Source of the DNA: Chiloscyllium plagiosum
Taxonomy: Eukaryota
DNA length: 64,000 bases
Direction: 5' to 3'
NCBI RefSeq assembly: GCF_004010195.1
Contig: NC_057718.1
Coordinates: 89,469,062-89,533,061 of the forward strand
Shown: positions 4,844-61,396 of the stretch, in pieces
Layout: the number at the start of each line of letters is the position of its first letter
Numbering within the stretch: the stretch's first letter is position 1
Notes under the pieces: generated by a model
Told to the model about the DNA's origin: nothing
The model's input: only the letters and a program-made list of their open reading frames with translations
The model's database searches: none
Made by a program: the position numbers and the translations under genes

Positions 4844-4969
4844 CGCTTGTTTGGTGTGTTGGATATCTGCAGCTGCTATCTTCACAGTGTCATCAGACAG
4901 GTCACACATCGAGCAAAGCAGTTCCAGGTAAGTACTGGCCTGCTCCTGTAGAGCCCGATAATGTTTCAC
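4844..4969 (-). CDS. SYNE1: SYNE1 exon W (126 nt) VKHYRALQEQASTYLELLCSMCDLS...QHTKQA
   Basis: acceptor ttgcag|GTG, donor GCG|gtaagc. Confidence 0.93.
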
Positions 4970-5672: not shown

Positions 5673-6078
5673 GTTCCAAAGAGATCACAGGAACAAAATG
5701 ACCTGAAGTGCCTTTTGCACAAACCATTAAAGGTGGCAGGGCAGGTTGTGAATGTGATTAAAAAGGTATAAAAGATCTTTATTAATAGAGACAGAGTACT
5801 GAAGCAATGAAGAACCTTTACAAGTTACTGCTCTGGCCTCAGGTCCAAAACTGGACACAGAACTTTCAAATTTGGGGAGAATTCAGAAAAGACTATCAAG
5901 ACGGGGGATAATTGGGAAAAGCTGGCGCTGTTCTCCCGAGAAACGTTTGAGATGAGATTTAACTGAGGCGCTTCAGGTCTCGACTGAGTGGTACTCAGAA
6001 TTAGACCCAATGGTCTGGCTGATTAATAAAGATCTATCCATAACTCCCTCGCTTTTGTCGCCTCTGTCTCCAGTTTTA

Positions 6079-6672
6079 GAGCATGCTCAAGTTCCAGCAG
6101 GTGGGTGTGTGGCTCTCTGACCTCGTGGGCAAAGTCAATCTCCGGACGGGGAGGAAGTCTGACCAAGACAGAAAGCAGACTCAGCTACAGCAGTTACAGG
6201 TGTGTTCAGTGCAAACAGAGATCTCCACACATTGCCCTGTCACACTGCGAACTCCTTCAGCCCATTCCTGTCAGGGTTACATAGTGACTGAAGCTGCTTA
6301 ACTGACTTATCCATCTACTGTGAACATTCACCATTCACAAGAATGTTATCTCTGAAGTTGAAATAGTGTTGAAGACTAGTTTTAGGAACAAGAGTTGGCC
6401 ATTCAGTCCCTCTAATCCATTCCATTGGATTCATCTTGGCTGATCTGTATTGTAATCCCACTGTGGGAGGTTGGCGTCTGGTAGCAATGTCCCTGGACTA
6501 GTAACCCAGAATCTCAGGCCAAAGCCCTGGGGATATAAATTCAAATCTCAAACATGACAGGTGGTGAAGTTTGAATTCAATCAAATACAGGATAAAGAGC
6601 TGACCTAACTGTAGATTGCCATTAAAACCCCACCTACCTCACTAACGTCCTTTAGGGGAGGAAATCTGTCAT
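6079..6672 (+). pseudogene. Inverted partial copy of SYNE1 exon O (3' part) plus downstream intron; source 20988-21614
   Basis: reverse complement of 20988-21614; 6172-6331 identical to 21347-21506; ORF 6083..6301 repeats the C-terminus of ORF 21377..21793. Confidence 0.95.
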
Positions 6673-6834
6673 CCTTACCTGGTCTGACCTACACATGGCT
6701 GCAGACTCATAGCTTCTGTCACTTGGGGTAATTAGGAATGGCCTAGTCTGCACCACCCACATAAGGAAAAAGCCCTAGATACCTCTCTCCCTGCCTCCTG
6801 AGCTGCTGTCAGGATATGGCTTGTGAGTTTGCAT

Positions 6835-7476
6835 GTACCTGTTCCCTCCCTGTGGGGGAACACTTCAGTGGTCCAGGACATTCGACCTCGGACCTTTGGG
6901 TGACCATCCTCCAAGGCGGGCAGTCATTACACACACACATACACTTTCTCACACTCACAACCCCCAACCCAGACAGACACACACACACAGACAAAGACCC
7001 ACATATACACATATATTTTGTGGGATGAATTTGTACTTTCAGAGTTACATTGTACTTTGCTCAAAAACTGCATGAATTTATGTAAAACTCCGTTATCTCA
7101 CTTTTTAGATTAGAATCAATCTAAACGTCATGGCATAGACAGAGAACACAGGGGGCTAACACCTTCAACATATTGGCGAGCTATCACCATTGTGAACAGC
7201 TAACCCGAGAATGCAACTTTTTAAAAAAAGGTTTTGTGATTTACACATGAAAGAAGTGAAACTATCACTGTATTCTAACAGATGAAAGTCTTAACAGACA
7301 ATCAATTTTTCAATGCATAATTTCAGTTACATCACACTGTCAATTTTTGCTATAAATTCTGTGTGTTAGGATTGAACCCTCCACAATCACCTGATGAAGG
7401 AGCGACACTCCGGAAGCTAGTGCTTCCAATTAAACCTGTTGGACTATAACCTGGTGTTGTGTGTTTTTTAACTTTG
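6835..7476 (+). mobile_element. Penelope-like element remnant with degenerate hammerhead (7388-7422)
   Basis: GIY-YIG C-terminal-like peptide SLPVGEHFSGPGHSTSDLWVTILQGG; pLTR ctgatgaaggagc...aaacctgttggactataacctggtg. Confidence 0.75.
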
Positions 7477-7485
7477 CACTGTTAC

Positions 7486-7632
7486 CTGTTTGAGTGATTT
7501 CCGTGGGCTGGTGGGCGGGTGGTCTCGGGGCTTCAGTTCCTGCTGCACAGAATGGAGCCAGGCCTGACATTGCTGCAGGGTGTCCTGGTGACTGACGTGC
7601 TTCTGTAGCTCACGTTCCAGACTCTGGTACAG
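7486..7632 (-). CDS. SYNE1: SYNE1 exon V (147 nt) LYQSLERELQKHVSHQDTLQQCQAWL...PRKSLKQ
   Basis: hand-translated; acceptor ccccag|CTG, donor CAG|gtaaca. Confidence 0.93.
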
Positions 7633-7700
7633 CTGGGGAGGAACGAGTCAGACAGAATCAGCAAAAGGTGCAGGTTCAACCCGCCACTGGTTCCAGCTTT

Positions 7701-8043
7701 CATAGAATCCCGACAGTGGGGGAGCAGGCCATTCAGCCCATCGAGTCCTTCCGAAGAGCATCCCACCCAGACCAACCCCCCAACCCTATCTCTGCGTTTC
7801 CCACAGCTGAGCCACCTAGCCTGCGCATCCCTAGACACTATGGGCAATTTCCCATGGCCAATTCACCTGACCCGCACATCTTTGGACTGTAAGAGGAAAC
7901 CGGAGCACCCAGAGGAAACCCAAGCAGACACGGGGAGAACGCACAAACTCCACACAGTCAGTCGTCCAATGACAGACTCAAACCTGGGTCCCTGGCGCTG
8001 TGAGGCAGCTGTGCTAATCACTGAGCCACCGTGCTACCACCCA
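7701..8043 (-). mobile_element. HE1-type V-SINE
   Basis: conserved V-SINE core ctgtgtggagtttg...gggtttcctc on minus strand. Confidence 0.9.
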
Positions 8044-8714
8044 TTGTATACACCACATCACCTGGCCTTTGCAAAGCAGGATGGGAAAATGTCAAGGATT
8101 TGTCCGACCAAGTCTCTGTGCGGACGCCGGCTCACCATGATGGAGGGGTGGGAAAGCAGTCGGCATTCTCATTGCCAATCGAGCTCGCTCCTTCAGACTG
8201 CATTGGAAGGAGGCAGGGCAGGTGGTGAGGAAACGCCCATCCTCACCCAACACCAGGCAGCAGCGCTGGGAACACACAGGCCCGTGACCAGCCTCACCCG
8301 GGGCAGCAGGCCACGGGGAGGGATTGACCCCAGGGATGGCACAGGTAGGAATTCATTGCTCCTCCGTCTGGGAAACATCGAGCGGCCCGAGATGGGAAAT
8401 CCGCTCCCCGGGTCAAAACGCAAGGGCAGGAGGCTTTGGGGTGGCCTCTTGTATCCCAACAACTCATGAAGCCCGGCGTCCTCATTAGTTTAGTTGGCAG
8501 CTGAAGCCTGGCCCAGAGGGCACTGGGATCTTCGACGTGTCTATGTAAATACTGCAGGTTTCCACAGTTCAACAAAGGAAAGAATACCATTCAGGCAGAC
8601 GTCGGTGTCAAGGAGATAGATGGGGGTTAGAAAGTGCCTGGTTTGCGCCTCTCTGACTCAGAAAGAGACTAGAACCTGCTCAATCCAGCTGTGAGTATGA
8701 TGAACGTTCCTTAC

Positions 8715-8891
8715 TCTCTGAGCTGTGCTACAGATGGCAGAGTAACTGTCCCGGATGCCCTGCAGGTGGCCTTGGACTTGATGCTTAAACTTTCCTTGGA
8801 GTCCCTCTGAGCAGTTGGCAACCAGGCTGTCCCCTTTGCTTCTCAGGCTCGCCAAAGCGTGTTCAAAGCCTGCTATCTCCTCCATGATAGG
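8715..8891 (-). CDS. SYNE1: SYNE1 exon U (177 nt) PIMEEIAGFE...DSYSAICSTAQR
   Basis: acceptor tgacag|CCT, donor AGA|gtaagg. Confidence 0.93.
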
Positions 8892-9325
8892 CTGTCAGGG
8901 CAGAAGAAAATCGGGAGGTCACATTAGGTCACCGTGCAGACATCACGCTCAGTGCAACGCTAGTTGAGAATACGTTTGGGAACATGGGAACGGGGGGAGG
9001 CCACTCAGCCCTCTAGCCCGTATTGCCATTTAGTCAGGTCATGGTGGATCTATGCCTTAATTTCCACCTCACAGTGTTTGTTCCGTCACCCCCGGCTACT
9101 GTTGCAAGCAAATATCTATCAACCACAGTTCTGGAAATTTCCACTGGCCCCCAGCCTTACCACCGTTTTGAGGGTGCAGAATCCAGATTTTCCCTCACCT
9201 TTATGTGAAGGAACATTTCCTGACATCGCTGTTCAGCTGTAGCTCTCACTGAATGGCCATCCATCTCTACCTGAGGAAATAGTTTTCCTCTGTCCACCTG
9301 ATAAACTCCTGTAAGCGTTCCAAAC

Positions 9326-9789
9326 ACCTCAACTGGGATTGGAGGGTTTGGACTATAGGGAGAGGCTGAACAGGCTGGGGCTGTTTGCCCTGGAGCGTCG
9401 GAGGCTGAGGGGTGACCTTATAGAGGTTGATAAAATCATGAGGGGCAGGGGTAGGGTAAATAATCAAGGTATTTTCCCTGGGGTGGGGGAATCCAGAACT
9501 AGACGGCATAGGTTTAGGCTGAGAGGGGAAAGATATAAAAGGGACCTAAGGGGCAACTTTTTCACGCAGAGGATGGTGCGTGTATGGAATGAACTGCCAG
9601 AGGAAGTGGTGGAGGCTGGTACAATTACAATATTCAAAAGGTGTATGGATGGGTATATGAATAGGGAGGGTTTAGCGGGATATGGGCCAAGTGCTGGCAA
9701 ATAGGACTAGATTAGGTTAGGATATCTAGTCAGCATGGACAAGTTGGACCGAAGGGTCTGTTTCCATGCTGTATGTCTCTATGACTCTA
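9326..9789 (+). mobile_element. CR1 (HER1-like) LINE 3' end
   Basis: ORF 9339..9704 RERLNRLGLFALERRRLRGDLIEV...FFTQRMVRVWNELP; ctatgactcta tail. Confidence 0.9.
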
Positions 9790-11022
9790 AACCTGTTGTT
9801 CCTTCAGCCTCTGTACCAGCCAATTCTTTACATCGTTGAATCTCACGATGGGTTCTTTCAGCCCCACCAGCACTCTGGTGAATCTGCATCACATTCACTC
9901 CAAAACCAACACTTGAAGCAAAGTGGAGAGCTCTCTTTGTCTGGAGAATTAGCTCAGGGTTTCTGCAATGGGCCGAACAACCCCACCACCGACTGAAATG
10001 AGAGTCCTGAGGATGCCAATGTTCATAAGGTCAAACGAGGAGGACATGACATTGGCAGGAAGTGCAGGTTGCACTGACACTCACCCGCCCAGACCCCACC
10101 AATGGAGCTCACCTCAGCTCACCTCCATCCATGCAGACCCTTCTTTCCAGGACATTATTTGTGCCATTGGGCCTTCACAGACATACCAGGTTATTCCTGT
10201 ACTAACAGACTGGACAGGCCTGGCTGAAGAGGTATCCCACCCTCCCTGTAAGGGACAATGGGGGGGGGGGGTTCTGTACCTTTAATGAGCTGTGTTAGAG
10301 TATTTCTCCCAGTCTCCCAGCCCTCACTTGATCTAAATTACTTCCCGCGACTGTGGGAGCTCCTGGGCATTGCAAACCTACACAGCTCTTCATCTTTAAC
10401 AGGAAGCTGATAAACCACCATGAAGGATCAGGAGAAACATTCTCAGAGCAAACGGACAGTGAATCAAGGGGGAGCTTCTGAAATACCAATTACATTGACA
10501 GGCTGTGAGTCAAGGTTAAATACTGACAAGGCTTATAATTCCTTCAGAACAGGAGGTTAAGGGGGAATGTAAGTGAGATGTTTAAGGAACAGGTTGGGTG
10601 AACTACAGAGAAACAAACTGGACAGACAGTGGAGGTAGAGATCAGAACTACTTCCACCAGTGGAAGGATCCAGCCAAAGGGGTCTCAGTTAAATTGAGAG
10701 TTATGGCATCCAGGGTTGATATCAGAGTGCACGTCTTCACTCAAAATATTACAACTTCTGGAATTCCCTTCCCCTGCCAAGGGGGTGATTGGAATTTTCC
10801 AGACTGGAGTTTTATGGATGAGGGTATTAAAGGATATGGTATCGAGTTGGATGGGGAAATGGAGTTGAAGTATTGGTCAGCCTTGACCCAGGGGTTTGAC
10901 GACTGGCTTGTGTTCCTATATTCTGTCAGGCGGCCATTGTGAACAGCAGGCCCCCCAGCCTCCATCGCGAGTGTTGCCCGAGAAGGAAAGTAATTTGCTT
11001 GAACCGTAAGCTTGCTGCGTAC

Positions 11023-11190
11023 CTTGTGCCTTGCCAAGTGCTGGGTTGCCATCTCCAGGTTGGTGCTCTGGGTGGTGTCAGGAGCCACCAGCCTAGTGGA
11101 GATCTGTAGCAGCCACTTCTCCACTTCCTGCAGGTTGCTGTTATAATCCTCGTGCTCCCTCACCTTCTCTCCCAGATTCTGGACACACAC
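11023..11190 (-). CDS. SYNE1: SYNE1 exon T (168 nt) VCVQNLGEKVREHEDYNS...QHLARHK
   Basis: acceptor ttccaag|GTG, donor AAG|gtacgc; LQEVEKWLLQ motif. Confidence 0.92.
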
Positions 11191-11561
11191 CTTGGAAAGA
11201 AAGAATAATGAAACATTGGGTTTGTAGGAGCCCCACAAGTCTGTACGGTTTAGTTACATTTATTCTTGGGACATCAGCATTGTGCCATGTCCGTCCATCT
11301 CCTGCTGACCTGAGATGGGGGTAATGCAACAGAGGGCATTGGCAACCACCTCAGAGAACAATAAAGAGTTAACTACATCAATAGGGACTGGAGTCTCACA
11401 TATGCCCAGCCGAATCACCTGTATAGTAATCAAACCATCAGTTCCGTGTGTATCCAGACTGGGAAGTTGCAATGCAGCCCTTTCTCTGGGCTGTTTCCCT
11501 AATACTTGTTTCTCTACCACACCCCAGGACTGCACTTATACCTTATCTTGACCCCTAGATA

Positions 11562-11883
11562 GGGGTGGCACGGTGGCTCAGTGGTTAGCACTGCTACCTC
11601 GCAGCTCTAGGGACCTGGGTTCGATTCCAGCCTCAGGTGACTGTCTGTGTGCAGTCTGCACATTCTCTGCGTGGGTTTCCTCCCACAATCCAAGGATGTG
11701 TAGGTTAGATTAACTGACTATGCCCAATTGCCTATCAGGAATATGTGGGATAGGTGCCTTTGTCAGGGGGAAATGTAGGGTAGGGGGAATGGGTCTGGGT
11801 GGGTTACTCTTCGGAGGGTTGGTGTGGACTTGTTGGGCTGAACGGTCTCTTTCCACATTGTGGGGATTCTAATTCTAATTCTA
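11562..11883 (+). mobile_element. HE1-type V-SINE
   Basis: A-box tggctcagtgg, B-box ggttcgattcc, (attcta)n tail. Confidence 0.9.
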
Positions 11884-12021
11884 CTTTTCCAGACTCAGAA
11901 CCTTACTCTGACCCTTCTGCCCTTAACCTCATCATGGGTTCCTATCCCCTTACCTTGAAGCCCTCATCTTGGCTCCGGGACCCATAGTGAGCACTCACCC
12001 TGACAACCCTCAGGAGCTTAC

Positions 12022-12174
12022 CATCACCGTTGAGCGGAGCTCCTGGTAATCTGTCTGCAGCCTCTTCAGATTGTCACTGACTGCGGGGTCATGAATGAGC
12101 TCGAAGACAGCCTGCCCCTTCTCGATCACCAACTTTATCCCCGGCTCGTGAGACACGATGGTTTGCTGGATGGC
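12022..12174 (-). CDS. SYNE1: SYNE1 exon S (153 nt) AIQQTIVSHEPGIKLVIEKGQ...DYQELRSTVM
   Basis: hand-translated; acceptor tcacag|GCC, donor ATG|gtaagc. Confidence 0.92.
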
Positions 12175-14232
12175 CTGTGACAAATAGGAGGCATCAGGTC
12201 TGCACTGCAGAGGCAGTTACTCTGCAACACTCGTGTACTACAATGAATTATTGTCAATCGCACACTGAGAACAATTTTGATGATTGCGTAACTAAGTGGT
12301 TGAGATGTTTGGGAGAATGGGGTTTGCAGTGAAGCAAGGTACCAGGAAGTAGCTGAGGGATTATTAATATAAGGCACTCCATACACTCAAACCTCTGCTA
12401 CTCGAATCTTGTCCAGTCTCTCTCATTGCATCATGGCTCACCGTGTCTTCAGCTGTCTGTCTCTTTGATTCTCATCTTGAGACCCTGTTCCTCCTGCTTT
12501 GTAAGATGCTTCCTAAAAACGAAAACCTGTCCTAAGATCTCCTCATGTGATTTGATGTCAAATCTTGCCTGAAAATGCTCCTGTGGATGGGGTGTTCCAC
12601 TTACGTTAAAAGGTGCTATATAAATGCAAGTCGCCCTGCCATCTCTGGGCCTTGTGCTCAGATCCCAAGTGAGGTAAAAGGATGGAAACCCAACTGCTAC
12701 AACAGAATGTGCAGAAATTCAAAAGCCCCAACACACCAGCTTAATAGGAGGTCCATGCTACAATCTGCGGCGCTAGTGCAGGGCAGACTTAGCTCATGGG
12801 GAAATGATTCAGATATTTGGTTCGATTCAAACCAGACAGTGGTGAGCCAATCTGCAGACTGGATCTCACCGTTGGCAAAGAGAGTATTAATAGGCTGCTG
12901 TGGGATGCCCTGAAAATGTTCGCTTCTTTCAGAGGCAGTTACTGGATTCTCTCTTACATTGACAGAACTAGATGAGAAGATAATAGAACAGGGACCAAAG
13001 GCTTGATCAGGATTTTAAGGAGCACCTTAAAGAAGGATAGAGCTGGAGCTAAGTAGGGAACTCCAGATTAAATCTGAAGGCACAGCCATCAACGATGGAA
13101 TGTAGGAAATGGGGGGGGGGGGGTTGGCAAGATTCTAAACATCTGCCCAAAACATGGTCAAAGCGTTTGAAGTCCCTGAGTCTGAGCCTGGAATAGCAGG
13201 AGACAAGCAGAAGAATTCAGGATTACATTGGCCACTGAATGGCACCCCGAACTTTCCCATCTCTCCACAGTGCTCGGAGTCAGCTCCGATCACCAAAGTG
13301 GGAATCTCCTCTCGATCTAACGACTGCAACGGAACAGTTTGCTGAAACCGATCTTCTCCCACTGACAAATATTCCCCCCCAAAAAAAAACCCACTGCAGG
13401 CCCGGTGAAATTCAGCCGATTCATTCACTCAGCATGGACGGATGTTCAGGGCAAACGTGTCATATTCTGGGCGTCACAATTTGGAGAGGAGACTGAGGCT
13501 CTGCTGAGCTTGGCTGAGATAGTTCTGGCAATGAGAGATTTTAATGATATGGAGGAGGATAGAGGAGTTGAGATTGTTGCTCTTGGTAGAAAGAAATTTA
13601 ACTGAACATTTAATTACAATTTTGAGGGATTTGGATAGAGTAGATAAGCATAAACTGTTTCCACACTTTGTACTGGTCTAACTGATTGATCGAACAGACG
13701 AGAGAGACAAAGGGGACGATTTCTTTTCCTATGTTCCACTAAGAGGAAGGTTCTTAAACTCCAGCTTTAAGAAAACGAACAAAAGAATTAGTGCAAAAAT
13801 CAGGAGTTTTTTTAATACAGTGAATTGTTAGCATCTAGAAATGTTCTACCTACGAGGTAATTGTTACTTTCAATAGGGAAATGGATGTGTATTTGAAAAA
13901 TAACAATATAGCAGTGGTGGGCAAAAGCAGGGGTGTGAGATTGATTGCATTTCTCTTTTGCACAATGGACCGAACGGCCTGTTTCTATGTGGTTGGGTGC
14001 TGGTCTATGAATCCAGCCCGGCAGCAATCTGACTGTACAACATCACAAACAAAATCAGAAATTACTAAATTGACTATCAGCTACAGTTGAAGCTTATGTT
14101 ATTGGAGGCAAATTATTGGCCTGGTTGGAAGATGGGCTGAGCAAAAGGAAGACAGAGAAAAATATTAATTAGATGGATACGATTTGGGATATTCTTTGTG
14201 GATTTGTGACAAGCCTGTAATATTCACTGTAA

Positions 14233-14437
14233 CAGGTCGCTCTGCTATAACATGCATTTCGTTAACACTAATTTGCTGTAACACTATTGAATTGGGGACA
14301 CTGTTTCTAAAGCGCAAAGTCTTAAAAGCGTGTATTGGTTATAATGCCATTAGTTTAAATGCTGCTGCTATTGCATGCTTTTTTTATAACACGGATTGCA
14401 TGAGAATGGAACGAAAGTGTTATAGCAGAACTGACCG
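14233..14437. mobile_element. Tigger/pogo-type MITE (TIR reminiscent of Tigger13-like elements)
   Basis: imperfect TIR tctgctataaca / tgttatagcaga; TA after right end. Confidence 0.55.
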
Positions 14438-14534
14438 TATTTATTCATGAGTGAGATTATGGGATAGAAAGACTTCACCTAAAATTTGCCAATAGCAACA
14501 ATTACTTCGTTGGTGTCTGTGGGCCCTTGCTGTG

Positions 14535-14878
14535 ACATGGATAGTGTGAATAGCCAAGGTCTTTTTCCTGGGATAGGGGAGTCCAAAACTAGAGGGAATA
14601 GGTTTAGGGTGAGAGGGCAAAGATTTAAAATAGACCTAAGGGGCAACTTTATCACACAGAGGGTGGTACGTGTATGGAATGAGCTGCCAGAGGATGTGGT
14701 GGAGGCTGGTACAATTACAACATTTAAGAGGCATTTGGATGGGTATATGAATAGGAAGGATTTGGAGGAATATGGGCCGGGTGCTGGCAAATGGGATTAG
14801 ATTAATTTCAGATATCTAGTTGGCATGGATGAGTTCGATAGAAGGGTCTGTTTCCGAGCTGTACACCCCAATGACTCT
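14535..14878 (+). mobile_element. CR1 LINE 3' end
   Basis: ORF 14486..14800 KTRGNRFRV...QRVVRVWNELP. Confidence 0.9.
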
Positions 14879-14949
14879 CTGACATAACTTGACTGTCACT
14901 GTTCCAACAGCGGCTACATTCCTTAAAGATGGTCTGGCGGTCATGAAAG

Positions 14950-15725
14950 GTCGTGAACCTAACCTTCTTTATCCTGTGGTACGTTTGACTGTTTGTATTG
15001 TTACAAAGACCCTCAGAATGAGGGACCCCTTCACAGAATACCTCTATTCAGTCCACAAGCGTGAGCCTGAGCTCCCTGTCATTTTAATTCTCCATCTTGC
15101 TTCCGCTCTGACCTCTCTGACCTCTCTGTCCTTGGCCTGCTATTCTGTTCCAGTGAAGCTCTGTGCAAACCCGAGGAACAGCACCTCACCTTTCCATTTG
15201 GCTAAAGCCTTCTGGATTCAATGTGGAGTTCAACAGTTTTAGATCTAGCCCCTGCCTCCACTTTGTGTCAGCGTGTATTTATTTTTGCTGGTTTATTTAT
15301 TTCTTCATTCCTTCTGTATTGGGATGACTGCTTTCCACCAATCACGCCTCACACCTTTCGTTTCGGTACGACACCCCCTTTGGCTTTGCACCCCGAAACC
15401 ATCTGTTGGTTAATTCACCTCCTGGCCACCAACCCTATCATAAAACTTCCCCTTCTGTTCCTCCTTCACCCTTTTCAGGAGATCACAAGAAGAAATAGGC
15501 CATTCAGCCCATCAAATCTGCTCCACCATTCATGAGATTGTGGCTGATCTGAAATTCCTCAACTCCACTTCCTCTCCACTTTCCTCCAATGGCTTTGAAC
15601 CAATCACTTTTCTGTCTCTCTTCAGTTCTGACAGGAACTCATCGACCTGGAAGGTGAACTTCCTCCACCTGCCAGACCTGCTGAGTATTTCCAGCACGTT
15701 CAGTTTCTGTTTCAGATTTCCTGCG
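14950..15725 (+). mobile_element. Degenerate Penelope-like fragments
   Basis: gaggaacagcacctcacc...gagttcaacagttttaga (EEQHL..F-like GIY-YIG tail); pLTR-like cagacctgctgagtatttccagc. Confidence 0.5.
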
Positions 15726-15764
15726 GGGTTCCACTTAGGGGACTACTCTTTTGGTTTCCGTTAC

Positions 15765-16091
15765 CTTGTACTTTGCCAGTTGGGCCTTCTTCTCAAACAG
15801 TTCCACTTTGGGCTCCACTGGGATCTGCAAGATGGCCTGGTACTCTGCCAACCACTTGGTCTGGCTCTGGTACTTGTCCAGGAACTCCTTCGTGAGGTAC
15901 AGGCATTTCTCCAGGTTGCCACGCTCCCTCCTAATGGAACTGGTCAACTCATTCAGTTGGCCAATATGGCCGTCCATGGATTTCCGCAGACCTTGAGCCT
16001 CCGGCCCCTCCAGATACTCTATAGCCCTCTCACTCTTCTCAAGGATCATCTTCAGTAGGCTGTTCCCCATGTCGATGTCATTGTGCAGCGT
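15765..16091 (-). CDS. SYNE1: SYNE1 exon R (327 nt) TLHNDIDMGNSLLK...EKKAQLAKYK
   Basis: acceptor ttccag|ACG, donor AAG|gtaacg. Confidence 0.94.
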
Positions 16092-17209
16092 CTGGAAATT
16101 AAAACAGTGTCTCTCAAAGCGAAAAGGGTATGGCAACAGACCAAAACTGACCACAATGGTGGTCAACTAAACGCCAACATCATGGACAGCTCCACAATTC
16201 CCTTAGGAGTTGTCAAACACTCATATTTTTTACTCAATAGAGTGTTTTGAGTAATTTGCTACCTCAATAGAGAGGTTTGGATCAAAGGAATTGATTTGTG
16301 ATAATCAAAGGGTCTCACATTTTCACATAGACAACGATGAAACAGAGAGGACAGAGTGGAGTGAAAATTATTCTCAAGGTGGACATCCCTGCATGAGCTC
16401 AGGGTGGTACTGAGCCACAGGAATTTGTGTCAGACATCAAGGTTTTCTGAGCTCTGTTAAAGTGACACGTGTTCTCCTCTTTCTTTTCGCCTGTTCTCCT
16501 GTCCTTTCTCCCCTCCCCCCACCTCCCATCCCAGTGTCTGTTCTATCCAGTCTGGCAGGAGACACACCATTGTTCTGACATGCCAATCCCTTAATCTGAA
16601 CTATCAACATCGTTTCATCACCAACACCCTGCGCCCACTACCCACCCTCCACCTCCCAAACTATAGCATAAGTGCTGCTCCCTCCACGCTTCGCGTCATC
16701 TAGCCTGGAAACGTTAGCTTGCTCTCTCTCCATGGATGCTGCCGGACCCGCAGCATTTGTTGTTTCCAGTGTTCTCCTCGTAATCACTAAATTCAACCCA
16801 CTGACCCAATCTCTCCTCTGCTCTCTCCCCACTGCCTCATCCTCTCCATATCGCCATGGGTTTCAATCCCAAAACTTATCCCACTGCCCCATTCTTCCTC
16901 ACTGTCCCAGTCTCTTCCCACTTCTCTCCCTACTGCTCATAGTCCTGTATCAAGCCCAAAATATATTGCGCTACCCAGCCCTCCCTGTGGCCCAATATCA
17001 ACCACTGCCCATTTCTCCCTCCACATTGTCTTGTATCCCCCCCCCCCCCCATGCCCCAAATGCCTCCTACGACCTATTCTCTCCTCTCAGGTACCAGGCA
17101 CTAAACTTATCGCACTGTCCTGCTCATTTCTCTGAAACCTCTTCCCCATGGCTCACTAGCAATCCTGAAATGAATCCCACCCTCTCACTTTCTCCCACAG
17201 CCCTGTCGA

Positions 17210-17630
17210 AGCAGCCCGTGTGATTGGCACCACATCCACAAGCATCCATTCCCTCCACCACCGACCCTCAGTAGCAGCAGTGTGTACTATCTACAGGATG
17301 CACCGCAGAAATTCACCAAAGATCCTCAGACAGCATGTTCCAAACCCATCTGGAAGGACAAGGGCAGCAGATACATGGGAACACCACCACCTTCAAGTTC
17401 CCCTCCGAACCACTCACCATCCTGACTTGGAAATATATCGCTGTTCCCTTCACTGTCACCTGGTCTAGATCCTGCAATTCCCTCCCGAAGGGTATTGTGG
17501 GTCAACCCACAGCAGGTGGACTGCAGCGGTTTAAGAAGACAGCTCACCCCCACCTTCTCAGGGGGCAACTGGGGACAGGCAATAAATGCTGGGCCCAGCC
17601 AGCAACGCCCACATCCCACAACTGAATAAA
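17210..17630 (+). mobile_element. CR1/L2-clade LINE 3' end (family unresolved)
   Basis: IHSLHHRPSVAAVCTIYRMH...WNSLP-like; ggcaataaatgctggg tail. Confidence 0.7.
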
Positions 17631-17762
17631 TTTTAAAAATTCCCAATGTGTCCACACAAAATGTACAACCCTTGAAGTTTGAATGTGTAACATCCATCCT
17701 GTTCCATCAGCCCATCTATGAAGGATTCCAAGGCGCACGCACACAGTTCCTCTGCTCTTTAC

Positions 17763-17933
17763 CTCAAATTTTTTAATTTTGTTTTCCATGGCGGTTTTGT
17801 CCACTACATTCAAAGCCACCGCCATGTTTTTAAAGTTCTTCTGGGTGGCACGGAGCCAGTCTGTGTAGGTGCCCAGCGCCAAATCAGCTTCTTCTAAAGC
17901 CCTCAGTTCCTCTTTCAGCAACTTGGTCTGGTC
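17763..17933 (-). CDS. SYNE1: SYNE1 exon Q (171 nt) DQTKLLKEELRALEE...ENKIKKFE
   Basis: acceptor ttacag|GAC, donor GAG|gtaaag. Confidence 0.93.
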
Positions 17934-18592
17934 CTGTAAGACAAGACAGATTGCCCATTGTGGTACAAGGCACACAACTCAGAACGTTCAGGAGCTCGGT
18001 GCAACAGAACATTGACACTGCAATGACAACCCGCTTGTGCTAACATGGCACTTATAACATGGCACTCCCTTCACCAAAGGCCAGGGTTCAAATCCACCCT
18101 ACCACCATATCCAGACTGCCACTTTCAGAAGGCATACTGTACTGGCACAGGTGCCATCTATTGACATGGGATACCAAACTGGTAGTCCATCTACCCTCTC
18201 AACAAGAAAGATCCGGTGGCTCTATTCTGTAGACGAGCAGAGGGGACCGCCTCAGTACTTGAAGCAATAATTAACCCACAACTACCAGCGAAAAGCAAAT
18301 GATCACATTGCTGATTGTGTGGCCCAGCTGTCTGCAGATTAGCAGTCACATTTCCCGACTTTTAATTCCCTCCAGATTTGGTTTCCATCGATTTGGAATT
18401 ACAGAATACTGGTCTGGTGTTGGTCCCTCCCAGGTTATGCACTTCCCACTCTGAGATTTGAAGTCCCCATGTCTTGGTGACTTTCACTTCTTGGTAAGCA
18501 TAGACCAGTGGGATTAATTTGGGGATTGCCAGTGAGCTGTGGGGGAAGACATTTCAGAGAATTGAGCAGGACAGTGTGATGCGTTTTGTGTT

Positions 18593-18768
18593 AAGATTAG
18601 AGTGGTGCTGGAAAAGCACAGCAGGTCAGGCAGCATCCGAGGAGCAGGATTCCTGATGAAGGGCTTTTGCCCGAAGTGTCGATTTTCCTGCCTGACCTGA
18701 TGTGCTTTTCCAGCACCACTCTAATCTTGACTCTAATCTCCAGCATCTGCAGACGTCACTTTAATCTC
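18593..18768 (+). mobile_element. Penelope-derived inverted-pLTR insertion with degenerate hammerhead
   Basis: arms aagattagagtggtgctggaaaagcac / gtgcttttccagcaccactctaatctt; core ctgatga agggc tttt gccc gaag tgtc. Confidence 0.75.
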
Positions 18769-18914
18769 AATGAGTTTTATACCTAGTACCTGACAGCGAG
18801 ACAAGAAAACTAGTAGTGGACGGTTTCACACACATGTCCATGGATGACCCAAAATGGGGACTGGATCATAGCATGTTCTAAGTTAGGACAGTTTATTCAG
18901 CCCATATGTAGTTA

Positions 18915-19170
18915 TCCCATCTCTTCCTCAATCTCCATTCCCTTTGATATCCAATTTAGTCTAATCCCACTCCATCCCCTTTAATATCCTCCTCAGTCTA
19001 AATTCACTCTCTTCCTCACTCCCCATTCCCTTTAATATCCTCCTTAGCCCAATCCCAGTCTCCATCTCACTCCCCATACCCTTTAATATCATCCTCAACC
19101 CAATCCCAGTCTCCATCTCACTCCCATTCCCTTCAATATCCAATTAAGTCTAATCTCTCCTTCTCCTCCA
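18915..19170. repeat. Degenerate ~51-bp minisatellite
   Basis: unit like ctccccattccctttaatatcctccttagcccaatcccagtctccatctca; 17-aa periodic ORF 18961..19143. Confidence 0.8.
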
Positions 19171-19631
19171 ATGAGTGTTTGTCTTTTTCAAGCCCCTCAT
19201 ATCCTATTAAAGCAATGTATGTGGTCTACTGCAATTAAACTGTGGCAGAGAAGTCTAAATTCTAATCGGCCTTGGTGGAAAGGAGCATTTCTCTTTGCTT
19301 CCCTTTATTTATTTTGTCTCTGCCCTTAGAGTCCACCCTCTTAATGCCCGCTGTAGACCAGCTGATACTTTGTCGTAACGTTTTCAGTGTGGGAGACCCT
19401 GTCTCAAGCCACCCCTTAGCCATCACATGCTGGCAAAAAAAATGACCATATATATCTTTGTTCCTGTAAAATTTCAGGGAATGGACCCAACAGCCCTGCG
19501 TTGACAGAGGTACAGTGCTCAGTGAAAGTAAGGAACCTTTCAAAGGGTAATTGATGTCTGAATACACAATACGTTCCACTAGAAGTTTCAGTGCCCAGTT
19601 TGGCACAGACTTGATTCCTTGAACTACGTAC

Positions 19632-19787
19632 CACCACATGCAGCAGAATGCCCTGATATCGGGCAGCAAGATGGGTAGCTTGACTTCCCACACTGCTGTT
19701 GATGTGACTCTCCTCTAGCACTTGATGAGCAAGCAGCCCAACCCTTTCCACTTCATCCTTCCGAGCAAGAATTTCCTCGTTCCATTT
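19632..19787 (-). CDS. SYNE1: SYNE1 exon P (156 nt) KWNEEILARKDEVE...YQGILLHVV
   Basis: acceptor tttcag|AAA, donor GTG|gtacgt. Confidence 0.92.
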
Positions 19788-20669: not shown

Positions 20670-20885
20670 TTTATTCATCCACGGGATGAGGGCATCACTG
20701 GCTGAGTCAGCATTTATGGCCCATCCCTAAATGCCCAGAGGGGGCAGTTAAGTGTCAACCCCATTGCTGTGGGTCTGGAGTCACATGGAGGCCTGACCAG
20801 GTAAGGATGGTAGTTTCCTTCCCTAAAGGACGCTGGTAAACTGGTGGGTTGTTCCTGACAATTGACAGAGTGGATTCATGGTCAT
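20670..20885 (-). mobile_element. Second shark SINE family (copies also near 6470-6770, 30515-30815, 49290-49590, 52955-53420, 53810-54105)
   Basis: shared ggtctggagtcacatgtaggccagaccaggtaaggatggcagtttccttccctaaagg. Confidence 0.7.
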
Positions 20886-21478
20886 AAGGACAGGTTGCAT
20901 TCACCAAAATTACACGTATAGAATACTAAGGGATGATGTTATCAAAGTGTTTCGGATAATTAAAGCATTTCGTAGGGTAAACAAGCTGGCAGGTTTTCCT
21001 CCCCGAATGGACGTTAAGGAGAAGCTGATGGGTTTTTATGACAATCGACAAAGGCTTCTTGATTGTCCTTAGGTCAACTCTCTGTTCCAGATTTTATTGA
21101 GTTCAAACTTCATCACCTGTCATGTTTGAGATTTGAACATATATCCCCAGGACATTGGCCTGAGATTCTGGGTTGCTAGTCCAGGGACATTACTACCACA
21201 CAACAAACTCCTATAGCAGGATTACAATACAGATCAGCCAAGATGAATTGTACAATGAAATAGATTAGAGGGAATGAATGACCTACTCTTGTTCCTAAGA
21301 CCAGGCTTCAACACTACTTCAAATTCAGCTAATATTCTTGTGAGCAGTGAATGTTCACAGTAGATGGATAAGTCAGTTAAGCAGCTTCAGTCACTATGTA
21401 ACCCTGACAGGAATGGGCTGAAGGAGTTCGCAGTGTGACAGGGCAATGTGTGGAGATCTCTGTTTGCACTGAACACAC

Positions 21479-21796
21479 CTGTAACTGCTGTAGCTGAGTC
21501 TGCTTTGTGTCTCGGTCAGACTTCCTCCCCGTCCGGATATTGACTTTGCCCTCGAGATCAGAGAGCCACACATTCACCTGCTGGAACATCTTCTCCAACT
21601 TCCTGAGCATGCTCAGGGTGGCATTGACCTTCTCCTTTGTCTCAGCCAGCCTCCGCTGGTACAGGTGCCAGTCCCGTTGCGCGGACTCGAGAATGCGATC
21701 CTCCATATATGTAGACCCTGATAAGGTCATCTTCTCCTGGCTCTGAAGAACTGCACTCATTAAAGTCTGGCCTTCAGTGCAATGCTTCTCCAAGTC
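21479..21796 (-). CDS. SYNE1: SYNE1 exon O (318 nt) DLEKHCTEGQTL...TKQTQLQQLQ
   Basis: acceptor cctcag|GAC, donor CAG|gtgtgt. Confidence 0.93.
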
Positions 21797-27658: not shown

Positions 27659-28068
27659 NNNNNNNNNNNNNNNNNNNNNNNNNNNNNNNNNNNNNNNNNN
27701 NNNNNNNNNNNNNNNNNNNNNNNNNNNNNNNNNNNNNNNNNNNNNNNNNNNNNNNNNNNNNNNNNNNNNNNNNNNNNNNNNNNNNNNNNNNNNNNNNNNN
27801 NNNNNNNNNNNNNNNNNNNNNNNNNNNNNNNNNNNNNNNNNNNNNNNNNNNNNNNNNNNNNNNNNNNNNNNNNNNNNNNNNNNNNNNNNNNNNNNNNNNN
27901 NNNNNNNNNNNNNNNNNNNNNNNNNNNNNNNNNNNNNNNNNNNNNNNNNNNNNNNNNNNNNNNNNNNNNNNNNNNNNNNNNNNNNNNNNNNNNNNNNNNN
28001 NNNNNNNNNNNNNNNNNNNNNNNNNNNNNNNNNNNNNNNNNNNNNNNNNNNNNNNNNNNNNNNNNNNN
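27659..28068. other. Assembly gap (410 N) with G-rich flanks
   Basis: direct inspection. Confidence 0.99.
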
Positions 28069-49802: not shown

Positions 49803-49939
49803 CTGTTGTATTCTTTGATCAGAGACGAAACTTTATCTGAATGTGAACTCAAATCCTTGGAAAATCTGCAGAGGTCATTGAGTTGACCTTTCAGGGACTC
49901 ACTCATGCTTTCTGCCTCTTTCAGAGCTTCCTCTGTCTC
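49803..49939 (-). CDS. SYNE1: SYNE1 exon E (137 nt) ETEEALKEAESMSESLKGQLNDLCRFSKDLSSHSDKVSSLIKEYN
   Basis: hand-translated (not in ORF track); acceptor gtgcag|GAG, donor AACAG|gtaagt. Confidence 0.92.
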
Positions 49940-52795: not shown

Positions 52796-53429
52796 TAATC
52801 GTTCTGGGTCTGTTCTGGGCACTGCACTTTTTAAAGGATATCAGGGGTTTGGAGAGAGTGGGGTGGAGGTGTAAGGAACGAAGGATTTCAGTTATATGTG
52901 GAGGCTAGAGAAACTGGGATTATCCTCTTTAGAGCTGGGGAAAATATTGGGGAGGTGATGGCCTAATGGGAGAATTGCTGGATTGTTAATCCAGGTAATG
53001 GCTTTGGGGATTCAGGTTTGAATCCTTCCATGTCAGATGGGGAATTTGAATTCAATAAAAGTCTGGAATTAAGAGTCTTGGATTTGAACCCGAGTCCCCA
53101 GAACGTTACGTGGCTCACTGGATTACCAGCCCAGCGATTATACCATGAGGCCATCACCTTCCGCAGCTCTGAGAAGGACAATCTCAATTTCTCTAGTCTC
53201 CACTAATATTGAACCATTACAAACCCATTGTCAATTGTTAAAAAAAACCCACCTGGTTCACTAACTCCCTTTAGGGAAGGAAGCTGCCATCCTTACCTGG
53301 TCAGGCCTACATGTGACTCCAGACCCACTGCAATGTGGCTGGCTCTCAATCGCCCACTGGACAATTAGGGATGGGCAATAAATGCTGACTAGTCAGTGTT
53401 GCCCCATGTCATGAATGAATTAAAGAAAA

Positions 53430-53732: not shown

Positions 53733-54939
53733 ACAAAAATGATGCAAGGCATAAAACCCCTAAGGGACAATGATGATGATAATACTGCACTGAATACTAC
53801 ACCCATCACTGGTTGCCCAGAGGGCAGCTGAGAGCCAGCCATAATACAGCGGGTCTGGAGTCATATGTAGGCCAGACCAGGTAAGGATGGCATTTTCCTT
53901 CCCTAAAGGGCATCAATGAACCAGGTGGGTTTTTCCAACAATTGACAAGGGATTTATAGTCATCATGAGACTCTTAATTCCAGATTTTTATTGAATTCAA
54001 ATTTCCCCATCTGCCATGGAAGGATTTGAACCCGAGTCCCCAGAACATTACGTGGCTCACTGGATTACCAGCCCAGCGATTATACCATGAGGCCATCACC
54101 TTCCGCAGCTCTGAGAAGTTCAATCCCAATTTCTCTAGTCTCCACTAATATTGAACCATTACAAAGCTCCAACAATCAACAGAGAGGCGAACATGGAGGA
54201 ACAACATTAGGAAAATCAATCAATAAAGTTGCTAAGGATGGAGCTAGAGAGAGTAAAACCCTTGGTCTGCATCAAACAGATCTGCACATCATAAGGCAAT
54301 TTAGCAAAAAGACAGCCGAGGTGCAGTTACACCTTTGCAAGATGTCACTAGAAATAGAAATTATTCCCGAAAACTGGGAGAGCAGGTAGTGTTATTCCTA
54401 TGTTTTAAAAGGGAACTAGAACAAGGAGATATAGACTGGCTTGATACTTGTGATAAAAATGGTAATTATTATCCTTACTCAAAGTGACAATGGGGAGTAA
54501 TGTCAGAAATAGAAGCAGAATGAAATGTGCTCAGGGGAGATATGAATCTTTTGAACACTGGAACAACACAAGGGAAAGAGGAGATGAGGGTCATGTGCTC
54601 GATGTAATATAGTTGGACTTTCTAACAACTTTCCACAAAGTCCTCAACCGTAGACTCATGACTAAGACCACAGCAGGGGTCATAGGACAAGAAGCAGAAT
54701 GAATCAAAATCTGACAACAAAATGACAGAAAAGAAAGTCAAGGCAAAGCATAGCCAGACAAATTAGTAAATGGAGTGGCACAGCATTCCACAGGGGATGG
54801 GCGCTGGGCCGTGCTGTGAAGAGACAGTCACCACTTGGATTGAGAAACTCTCTCATCTACTACACCGCCGCGTTTCCCAGGTCCTGGGAATCCCATGCAA
54901 CAGCTATTACATTAACTGCACCGTGAGAGCCTCTTACTG

Positions 54940-61200: not shown

Positions 61201-61396
61201 GTTTGGAGGAGCTGGTGTTGGACTGGGGTGGACAAAGTTAAAAACCACACGACACCAGGTTATAGTCCAACAGGTTTATTTGGAAGCACTAGCTTTCGGA
61301 GGTGGTTGGCCTGATGAAGGAGCAGCGCTCCGAAAGCTAGTGCTTCCAAATAAACCTGTTGGACTATAACCTGGTGTCGTGTGGTTTTTAACTTTA
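61201..61396 (+). mobile_element. Penelope-derived perfect hairpin insertion with hammerhead core
   Basis: 68-bp perfect inverted arms 61234-61301 / 61328-61395; 9-bp TSD ttttacaga. Confidence 0.85.
61311..61342 (+). ncRNA. Minimal hammerhead ribozyme core motif
   Basis: CUGAUGA-A-GGAGC(AGC)GCUCC-GAAA-GC-UA. Confidence 0.65.

Follow-up and report, generated by a model that had tools for sequence, protein, structure and literature searches.

SYNE1 and the inverted copy of exon O

The window, i.e., the whole stretch of 64,000 nucleotides analysed here, holds SYNE1 exons N-X, and every SYNE1 exon in it lies on the minus strand. Exon O was matched to nesprin-1 proteins, and shark models were then used to map the exons of the window, which agree at 94-100% per exon with the models of Chiloscyllium punctatum and Hemiscyllium ocellatum, with the exception of one shortened exon in the C. 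punctatum model. Antisense to the gene, within intron V-W, lies an inverted copy of the end of exon O and the start of its intron. We refer to this copy as the left arm and to its source, 15 kb away, as the right arm.

6079..6672, + strand: left arm, the inverted copy (self-BLAST, pairwise alignment); runs from the 3' part of exon O through the donor into the beginning of intron O, with a repeat fragment and the head of a SINE
6172..6331, + strand: identical core, equal to 21506-21347 in this assembly (pairwise alignment)
6461..6768, + strand: SINE-like repeat, common to both arms up to about 6665, then running on to a tail absent from the source arm
6040..6079, + strand: pyrimidine-rich tract with AG at 6072-73 and 6078-79, directly before the copy; putative acceptor-like tract on the antisense strand
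20988..21614, - strand: source (right) arm, exon O 3' part and first ~490 bp of intron O (alignments)
21479..21796, - strand: SYNE1 exon O, 318 nt, phase 0/0
7486..19787, - strand: exons P to V of SYNE1, seven in number and enclosed by the arms; phase 0 throughout, together 1299 nt = 433 aa
19787-19632, - strand: exon P, phase 0
17933-17763, - strand: exon Q, phase 0
16091-15765, - strand: exon R, phase 0
12174-12022, - strand: exon S, phase 0
11190-11023, - strand: exon T, phase 0
8891-8715, - strand: exon U, phase 0
7632-7486, - strand: exon V, phase 0
4844..4969, - strand: SYNE1 exon W, first past the left arm, phase 0

These seven in-frame exons between the arms were not mentioned in the original prediction. 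Exons P-V appear to form four repeat units in register, because their lengths group into 109, 109, 107, and 108 residues and a Trp-Leu motif recurs at 77, 184, 295, 401, and 515; from the Pfam labels of the models, we take these units to be spectrin repeats. The exon O donor is the only one of the 11 (N-X) without A at +3 and looks the weakest of them. Elsewhere in the gene, two teleost nesprin-1 models (P0015, P0024) start at or just past an exon at 49805-49939 (minus strand), and many vertebrate nesprin isoform models of about 5800 aa were among the matches; there may be a conserved internal SYNE1 start near 50-51 kb.

In self-BLAST the arms form the top-scoring repeat pair of the window: 6091-6664 aligns with 21587-20995 on the minus strand at 86.2% identity over 596 columns. 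Their divergence is uneven. Pairwise alignment gave 7 mismatches in 81 aligned bases for the outer exonic part, together with a 15-nt deletion near the start of the copy, and 50 mismatches in 330 (15.2%) for the intronic side. The core at 6172-6331 has 0 mismatches in 160 and comprises 28 exonic and 132 intronic bases, given exon O at 21796-21479. No other exact inverted match in the window is as long, the next ones measuring 68 and 45 nt, although its length is a property of this assembly and contigs from reads yield other lengths. When 64 breaks were placed at random over 571 columns, the longest run in 200,000 placements was 119 and never 160 (7 gap breaks were allowed, against 5 in the actual alignment). 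The original prediction had described this inverted copy, its outer exonic substitutions and deletion, its roughly 15% intronic divergence, and a perfect core across the donor of a length very improbable by chance, and each of these held on re-measurement.

Rfam returned 0 matches over 5900-6900 to E = 1, and the core is without an intrinsic fold of its own (z = -0.24). Within both arms, 6383-6425 is a piece of a very high-copy repeat with a depth of 300-2000 in DNA runs. Elsewhere in the window, 61234-61395 is a short fold-back with 68-nt exact arms, and 53080-53223 and 54022-54165, which lie among SINE copies at a distance of 0.9 kb, form a direct repeat of 144 bp with 97% identity.

The arms have derived SINE letters in common to about 6665, and the SINE of the copy extends to a tail near 6768 that is absent from the source. 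A LINE-made retrocopy of pre-mRNA, primed at a SINE tail, would be expected to end 3' at that tail, to have a cut 5' end, and to carry a target-site duplication; the copy is cut inside exon O and runs to a SINE tail which the source lacks, and no duplication was seen by eye. Copying may have taken in the whole SINE, with later loss of the tail from the source, or it may have begun at a resident SINE, and both a DNA template switch and RNA-templated copying from the SINE end fit. Since six changes of the copy would alter an amino acid (6105, 6110, 6126, 6165, 6171, and 6189) against one silent change (6148), the copy looks unconstrained as coding sequence.

The arms in two organisms

A search of public runs listed 24, with 0.48-0.72 of words for organism A and 0.28-0.32 for organism B; the word shares place B roughly 2-3% from the window. 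Four of the 24 were mapped to 5950-6470 with a likeness threshold of 80%, which brings the sequences of both arms to this stretch: X2 (organism A, DNA), X9 and X14 (organism B, DNA), and X15 (RNA). The comparison therefore spans two organisms and three DNA runs, and all run data are contigs, in which rare variants are dropped, bubbles may vanish, and phase does not carry across an identical block. Contigs of X2, X9, and X14 run unbroken from the left flank over the junction at 6079 into the copy. Because these contigs bridge the left junction, the copy is real, not invented by assembly, and older than the split between A and B. At the rate of 7e-10 per generation given for the epaulette shark (PMC10587355; wide interval), should it hold here, the A-B split alone lies about 2e7 generations back, which is a rough lower bound on the age of the copy. 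An age taken from the 15% divergence was rejected as firm, because conversion would reset parts of the arms.

X2 differs from the window at left-arm sites 6000, 6060, 6148, and 6278, where organism B matches the window; organism A either carries about 1% variation over 5950-6470 or includes mixed populations. At 21573-21574 of exon O (6104-6105 in copy coordinates), the window encodes Asn where five cartilaginous-fish models have Asp, while X2, X15, and organism B have one difference fewer at this end of exon O. This Asn probably occurs in the present assembly alone, as an allele or an error. A Leu-to-Ile change at 21538 is common to X2 and X15.

The stretch over which the arms are identical is not the same in each genome:

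6111..6171, + strand: exonic stretch; the window arms differ at 5 sites, the organism-B arms are identical
6172..6223, + strand: core part with the donor at 6199/6200; arms identical in the window and in both B runs (identity reaches 6219 in X2 and 6259 in X9)
6260..6331, + strand: far core part; arms identical only in the window, organism-B arms differ

Specifically, both B arms enter one contig over 6111-6223 in X14 (depth 41.6 vs 22.6 + 20 incoming), and depth bins show their paths separating again at about 6224-6229. In X9, both enter one contig over 6111-6259 (depth 9.61 vs 6.09 + 3.45) and appear to re-merge over 6401-6458, where the window arms have 4 differing sites and an indel. The B arms differ at 6260, 6288, 6306, 6307, 6322, 6325, and 6329, as well as in a patch at 6291-6300. 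The arms of X2 are common over 6172-6219, except at 6189 in one left allele, its right arm being covered to 6219. Farther on, the X2 left arm departs from the window at 6278 and at 6292-6300, where it holds a pure 4-base microsatellite, as does the B left arm; the left arm of the window has right-arm letters in place of this microsatellite. The window patch at 6278-6300 is probably the trace of a very recent right-to-left conversion, and an assembly collapse is the less probable account. Sites at which the arms of one organism alone differ fall into 7 runs among 25 sites (hand tally, p = 0.008). This test left out 6105, 6332, 6333, 6357, and 6378, where the arms of both organisms differ, the complex stretch 6349-6353, and 6396/6399, which lie under the repeat pile-up; 6104 was deduced, and 6306/6307 are adjacent. 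The donor fell within the identical block in every genome examined.

Changes carried by both arms were also seen. At 6283, a listed row, both B arms have C, against A in the two arms of the window and in the left arm of X2. Two further B changes common to both arms were deduced from contig letter counts in 6230-6259, where both B inner contigs start and rows near contig ends are not listed. Divergence between A and B was 2/88 in 6172-6259 (wide limits, 0.3-8.0%) vs 2/107 in the left flank, which has one deletion in addition; the intronic core alone gave 2/60 vs 2/107 (Fisher P = 0.62, low power). Arm identity is thus a feature within genomes, not across them, and shifting within-genome identity without extra conservation across organisms is what recurrent, lineage-specific gene conversion, a known process, is expected to leave. 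The original prediction had offered selection and gene conversion as ways in which the core may be kept, and had asked whether the arms co-vary. It had also named a core conserved no more than its flanks as a refuting result, and within the limits of two organisms this is what was observed. The arms do co-vary, but as shifting blocks of complete identity, as conversion predicts; conversion as the cause gained support from the organism-specific blocks and the changes in both arms, whereas selection on the core was not supported in this low-powered comparison of two organisms.

Pairing, assembly, and inversion as alternatives

Selection might keep the arms as an RNA pair, with conversion as the means, that masks donor O or loops out P-V, the product being either a circular RNA or a nesprin-1 that skips these exons in frame and is four spectrin units shorter. 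The arms lie in the two introns (O and V) flanking P-V, no other long inverted match links those introns, and P-V encode 433 aa, at phase 0 and aligned with the repeat register. Back-splicing and skipping are promoted by reverse-complementary matches (PMC8330042), and the computed duplex reaches -330 kcal/mol for the core and -968 for the whole. However, two ordinary repeat pairs of 186-205 nt gave -291 and -312 kcal/mol, the window holds 27 inverted pairs of at least 200 nt and at least 80% identity, and the pairing region is not conserved above its flank and has edges that vary between genomes. In X15, one RNA run whose contigs drop rare forms, a 6640-nt contig (depth 37.9) carries exon O alleles with the start of exon P directly after the donor, and continues 5519 nt unbroken past it; no contig reading through the donor and none with the copy's alleles occurred in that run over the mapped 5950-6470, where the intronic core had no coverage. 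Among 151 nesprin protein models with both O and W (from 160 long proteins fetched; gene models, mostly of species that may lack the copy), 0 join O directly to W, and the smallest gap is 314 aa. Furthermore, splicing is co-transcriptional, and intron O (1.7 kb), whose acceptor is transcribed 13 kb ahead of the left arm, is probably often spliced before that arm is made. We consider it unlikely that selection for pairing maintains the arms, and quite unlikely that conversion renews an antisense arm at a weak donor which the shark uses to loop out P-V, although the constant presence of the donor inside the block and its weakness are what selection for pairing would also predict. As for the duplex originally proposed to mask donor O, its formation is possible on paper, but the donor is used normally in the one RNA run. 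Judged from the layout, low-level circular RNA, in-frame skipping, or in-frame DNA inversion through the arms is possible. Reading through donor O (21478-21377, minus strand) would add 33 codons before a stop inside the core, and a SINE end with AATAAA near 20675 might provide an alternative 3' end; X15 showed no such end.

Three further readings fare worse. The inverted arms with their identical block could be a recombination substrate through which the 15-kb segment flips, past flips having shaped the mosaic; in humans, inversions between inverted repeats arise repeatedly, with breakpoints where identity is highest (PMC3961182), and, O and W both being phase 0, such a flip would create an allele with an in-frame O-W junction. 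Against this, all SYNE1 exons of the window are on one strand, the left outer alleles of X2 join the left inner contig, a reciprocal swap of alleles between A and B was not seen, the C. punctatum model has O-W in order, and crossing-over alone cannot make arms identical, which leaves inversion improbable. It is still less probable that the copy is an exon of an antisense (plus-strand) transcript, bounded by the acceptor-like stretch of 6040-6079 and the donor within the copy. The AG at 6073 is in the top 1-2% of plus-strand AGs, ranking 35 and 77 of 4385 by two rough matrices (the first built on 22 training sites, about 5 of them misplaced, the second on 12 checked acceptors), a frame is open over 6080-6199, and a change at 6071 in organism B keeps the AG. 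Yet both flanks are pyrimidine-rich (74% and 67%), the changes of the copy are mostly amino-acid changing, the single RNA run yielded no contig with the copy's alleles (a weak point, given contigs), and a weak search with its 40-residue peptide returned 2 candidate proteins, none passing. Finally, the whole perfect core could be an assembly or gap-filling artefact, as had been allowed for originally, which now seems barely credible. The assembly does have an N gap, and the differences of the X2 left arm at 6278 and 6292-6300 mean that the far part may be collapsed; but the sole N gap of the window is at 27659-28068, far from both arms, and the arms enter shared contigs over 6172-6219 in X2 and over 6111-6223 or 6259 in B. 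These shared contigs in independent runs refute an artefact for the donor-proximal core, and collapse may hold for 6260-6331.

Probable gene conversion between the arms

The arms are a real local inverted duplication that predates the A-B split, and we infer, with a probability of roughly 0.7, that they have been overwritten by intrachromosomal gene conversion. They would keep overwriting each other, and in this way 50-160 identical bases would persist as a block at the donor of exon O, with edges that vary by genome. The remaining identical block may seed the next event. Selection on the real exon and donor would remove harmful copy-to-exon events and slow divergence there, and, because conversion is easiest where the identical stretch is longest, the exon end would tend to be the last place at which identity survives. 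The copy could in this way remain a good antisense match without selection for pairing, any RNA duplex being a by-product, although a duplex that results from conversion may still be used.

Conversion between duplicates is favoured by location on the same chromosome, short distance, more than 80% identity, and long identical stretches, with tract estimates of 50 to several hundred bp (PMC3924818). The arms share one chromosome at 86.2% identity over 596 columns and a distance of 15 kb, both copies carry the same changes (6283, and probably two more in 6230-6259), and block edges vary by lineage (6172-6331 in the window, 6111-6223/6259 in B, and also 6401-6458 in X9). The same source gives a minimal segment of ~200 bp, with slower conversion allowed below it; the identical block here is shorter, which counts against conversion.

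The copy is best explained by this already known process, and the arms have relatives in several systems. As in interlocus conversion between nearby same-chromosome paralogues of more than 80% identity, with overlapping events and blocks of identity from 50 bases to a few hundred (PMC3924818), the arms share short perfect tracts; here, in contrast, they are a live exon end and an inverted intronic copy in one transcription unit, only ~600 bp long, one of them under coding and splice-site constraint. Palindromes of the primate X, kept identical by arm-to-arm conversion (PMC8981503), likewise have inverted arms more alike within than between species and edges that move, but their arms are long (median 37 kb, >99.9%), whereas ours measure 0.6 kb, are 86% identical, and have a single small island of conversion, far from the many kb and >99% identity of large palindromes. 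F8 int22h, IDS/IDS2, and SORD/SORD2P (PMC12632684, PMC3961182) also pair a gene with a partial copy in opposite orientation, with exchange that permits inversion; here no inversion was seen, both arms are inside the gene, and, from the exon phases, a flip would delete 433 codons in frame and leave the gene unbroken. Matches that promote back-splicing or loop-out (PMC8330042, PMC13019027) similarly place inverted sequence in two introns flanking an exon block. Unlike those, the pair here has one arm lying over the upstream donor itself, encloses seven exons and 15 kb, and shows no conservation above the flank.

The Alu pair of TBXT, which reportedly puts inverted sequence in introns flanking an exon block, is kin to such loop-out systems. 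By analogy, the arms have a layout known to promote back-splicing and skipping, and minor products are possible. No paper on this locus was found in the literature searched, in which coverage of subscription papers was thin.

If loop-out or a flip were true, the product would be a skipped or circular RNA, or a flipped DNA allele, with nesprin-1 shorter by exactly four spectrin units, i.e., an in-frame length change of a giant nuclear-envelope linker and a self-renewing splicing element. Under recurrent conversion, the locus is a small, clear example of how conversion can create and renew an antisense sequence that matches a splice site perfectly, and conversion would still be active between 600-bp arms at about 85% identity. 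Identity between arms, and even their co-variation between species, is therefore not proof of a selected RNA structure.
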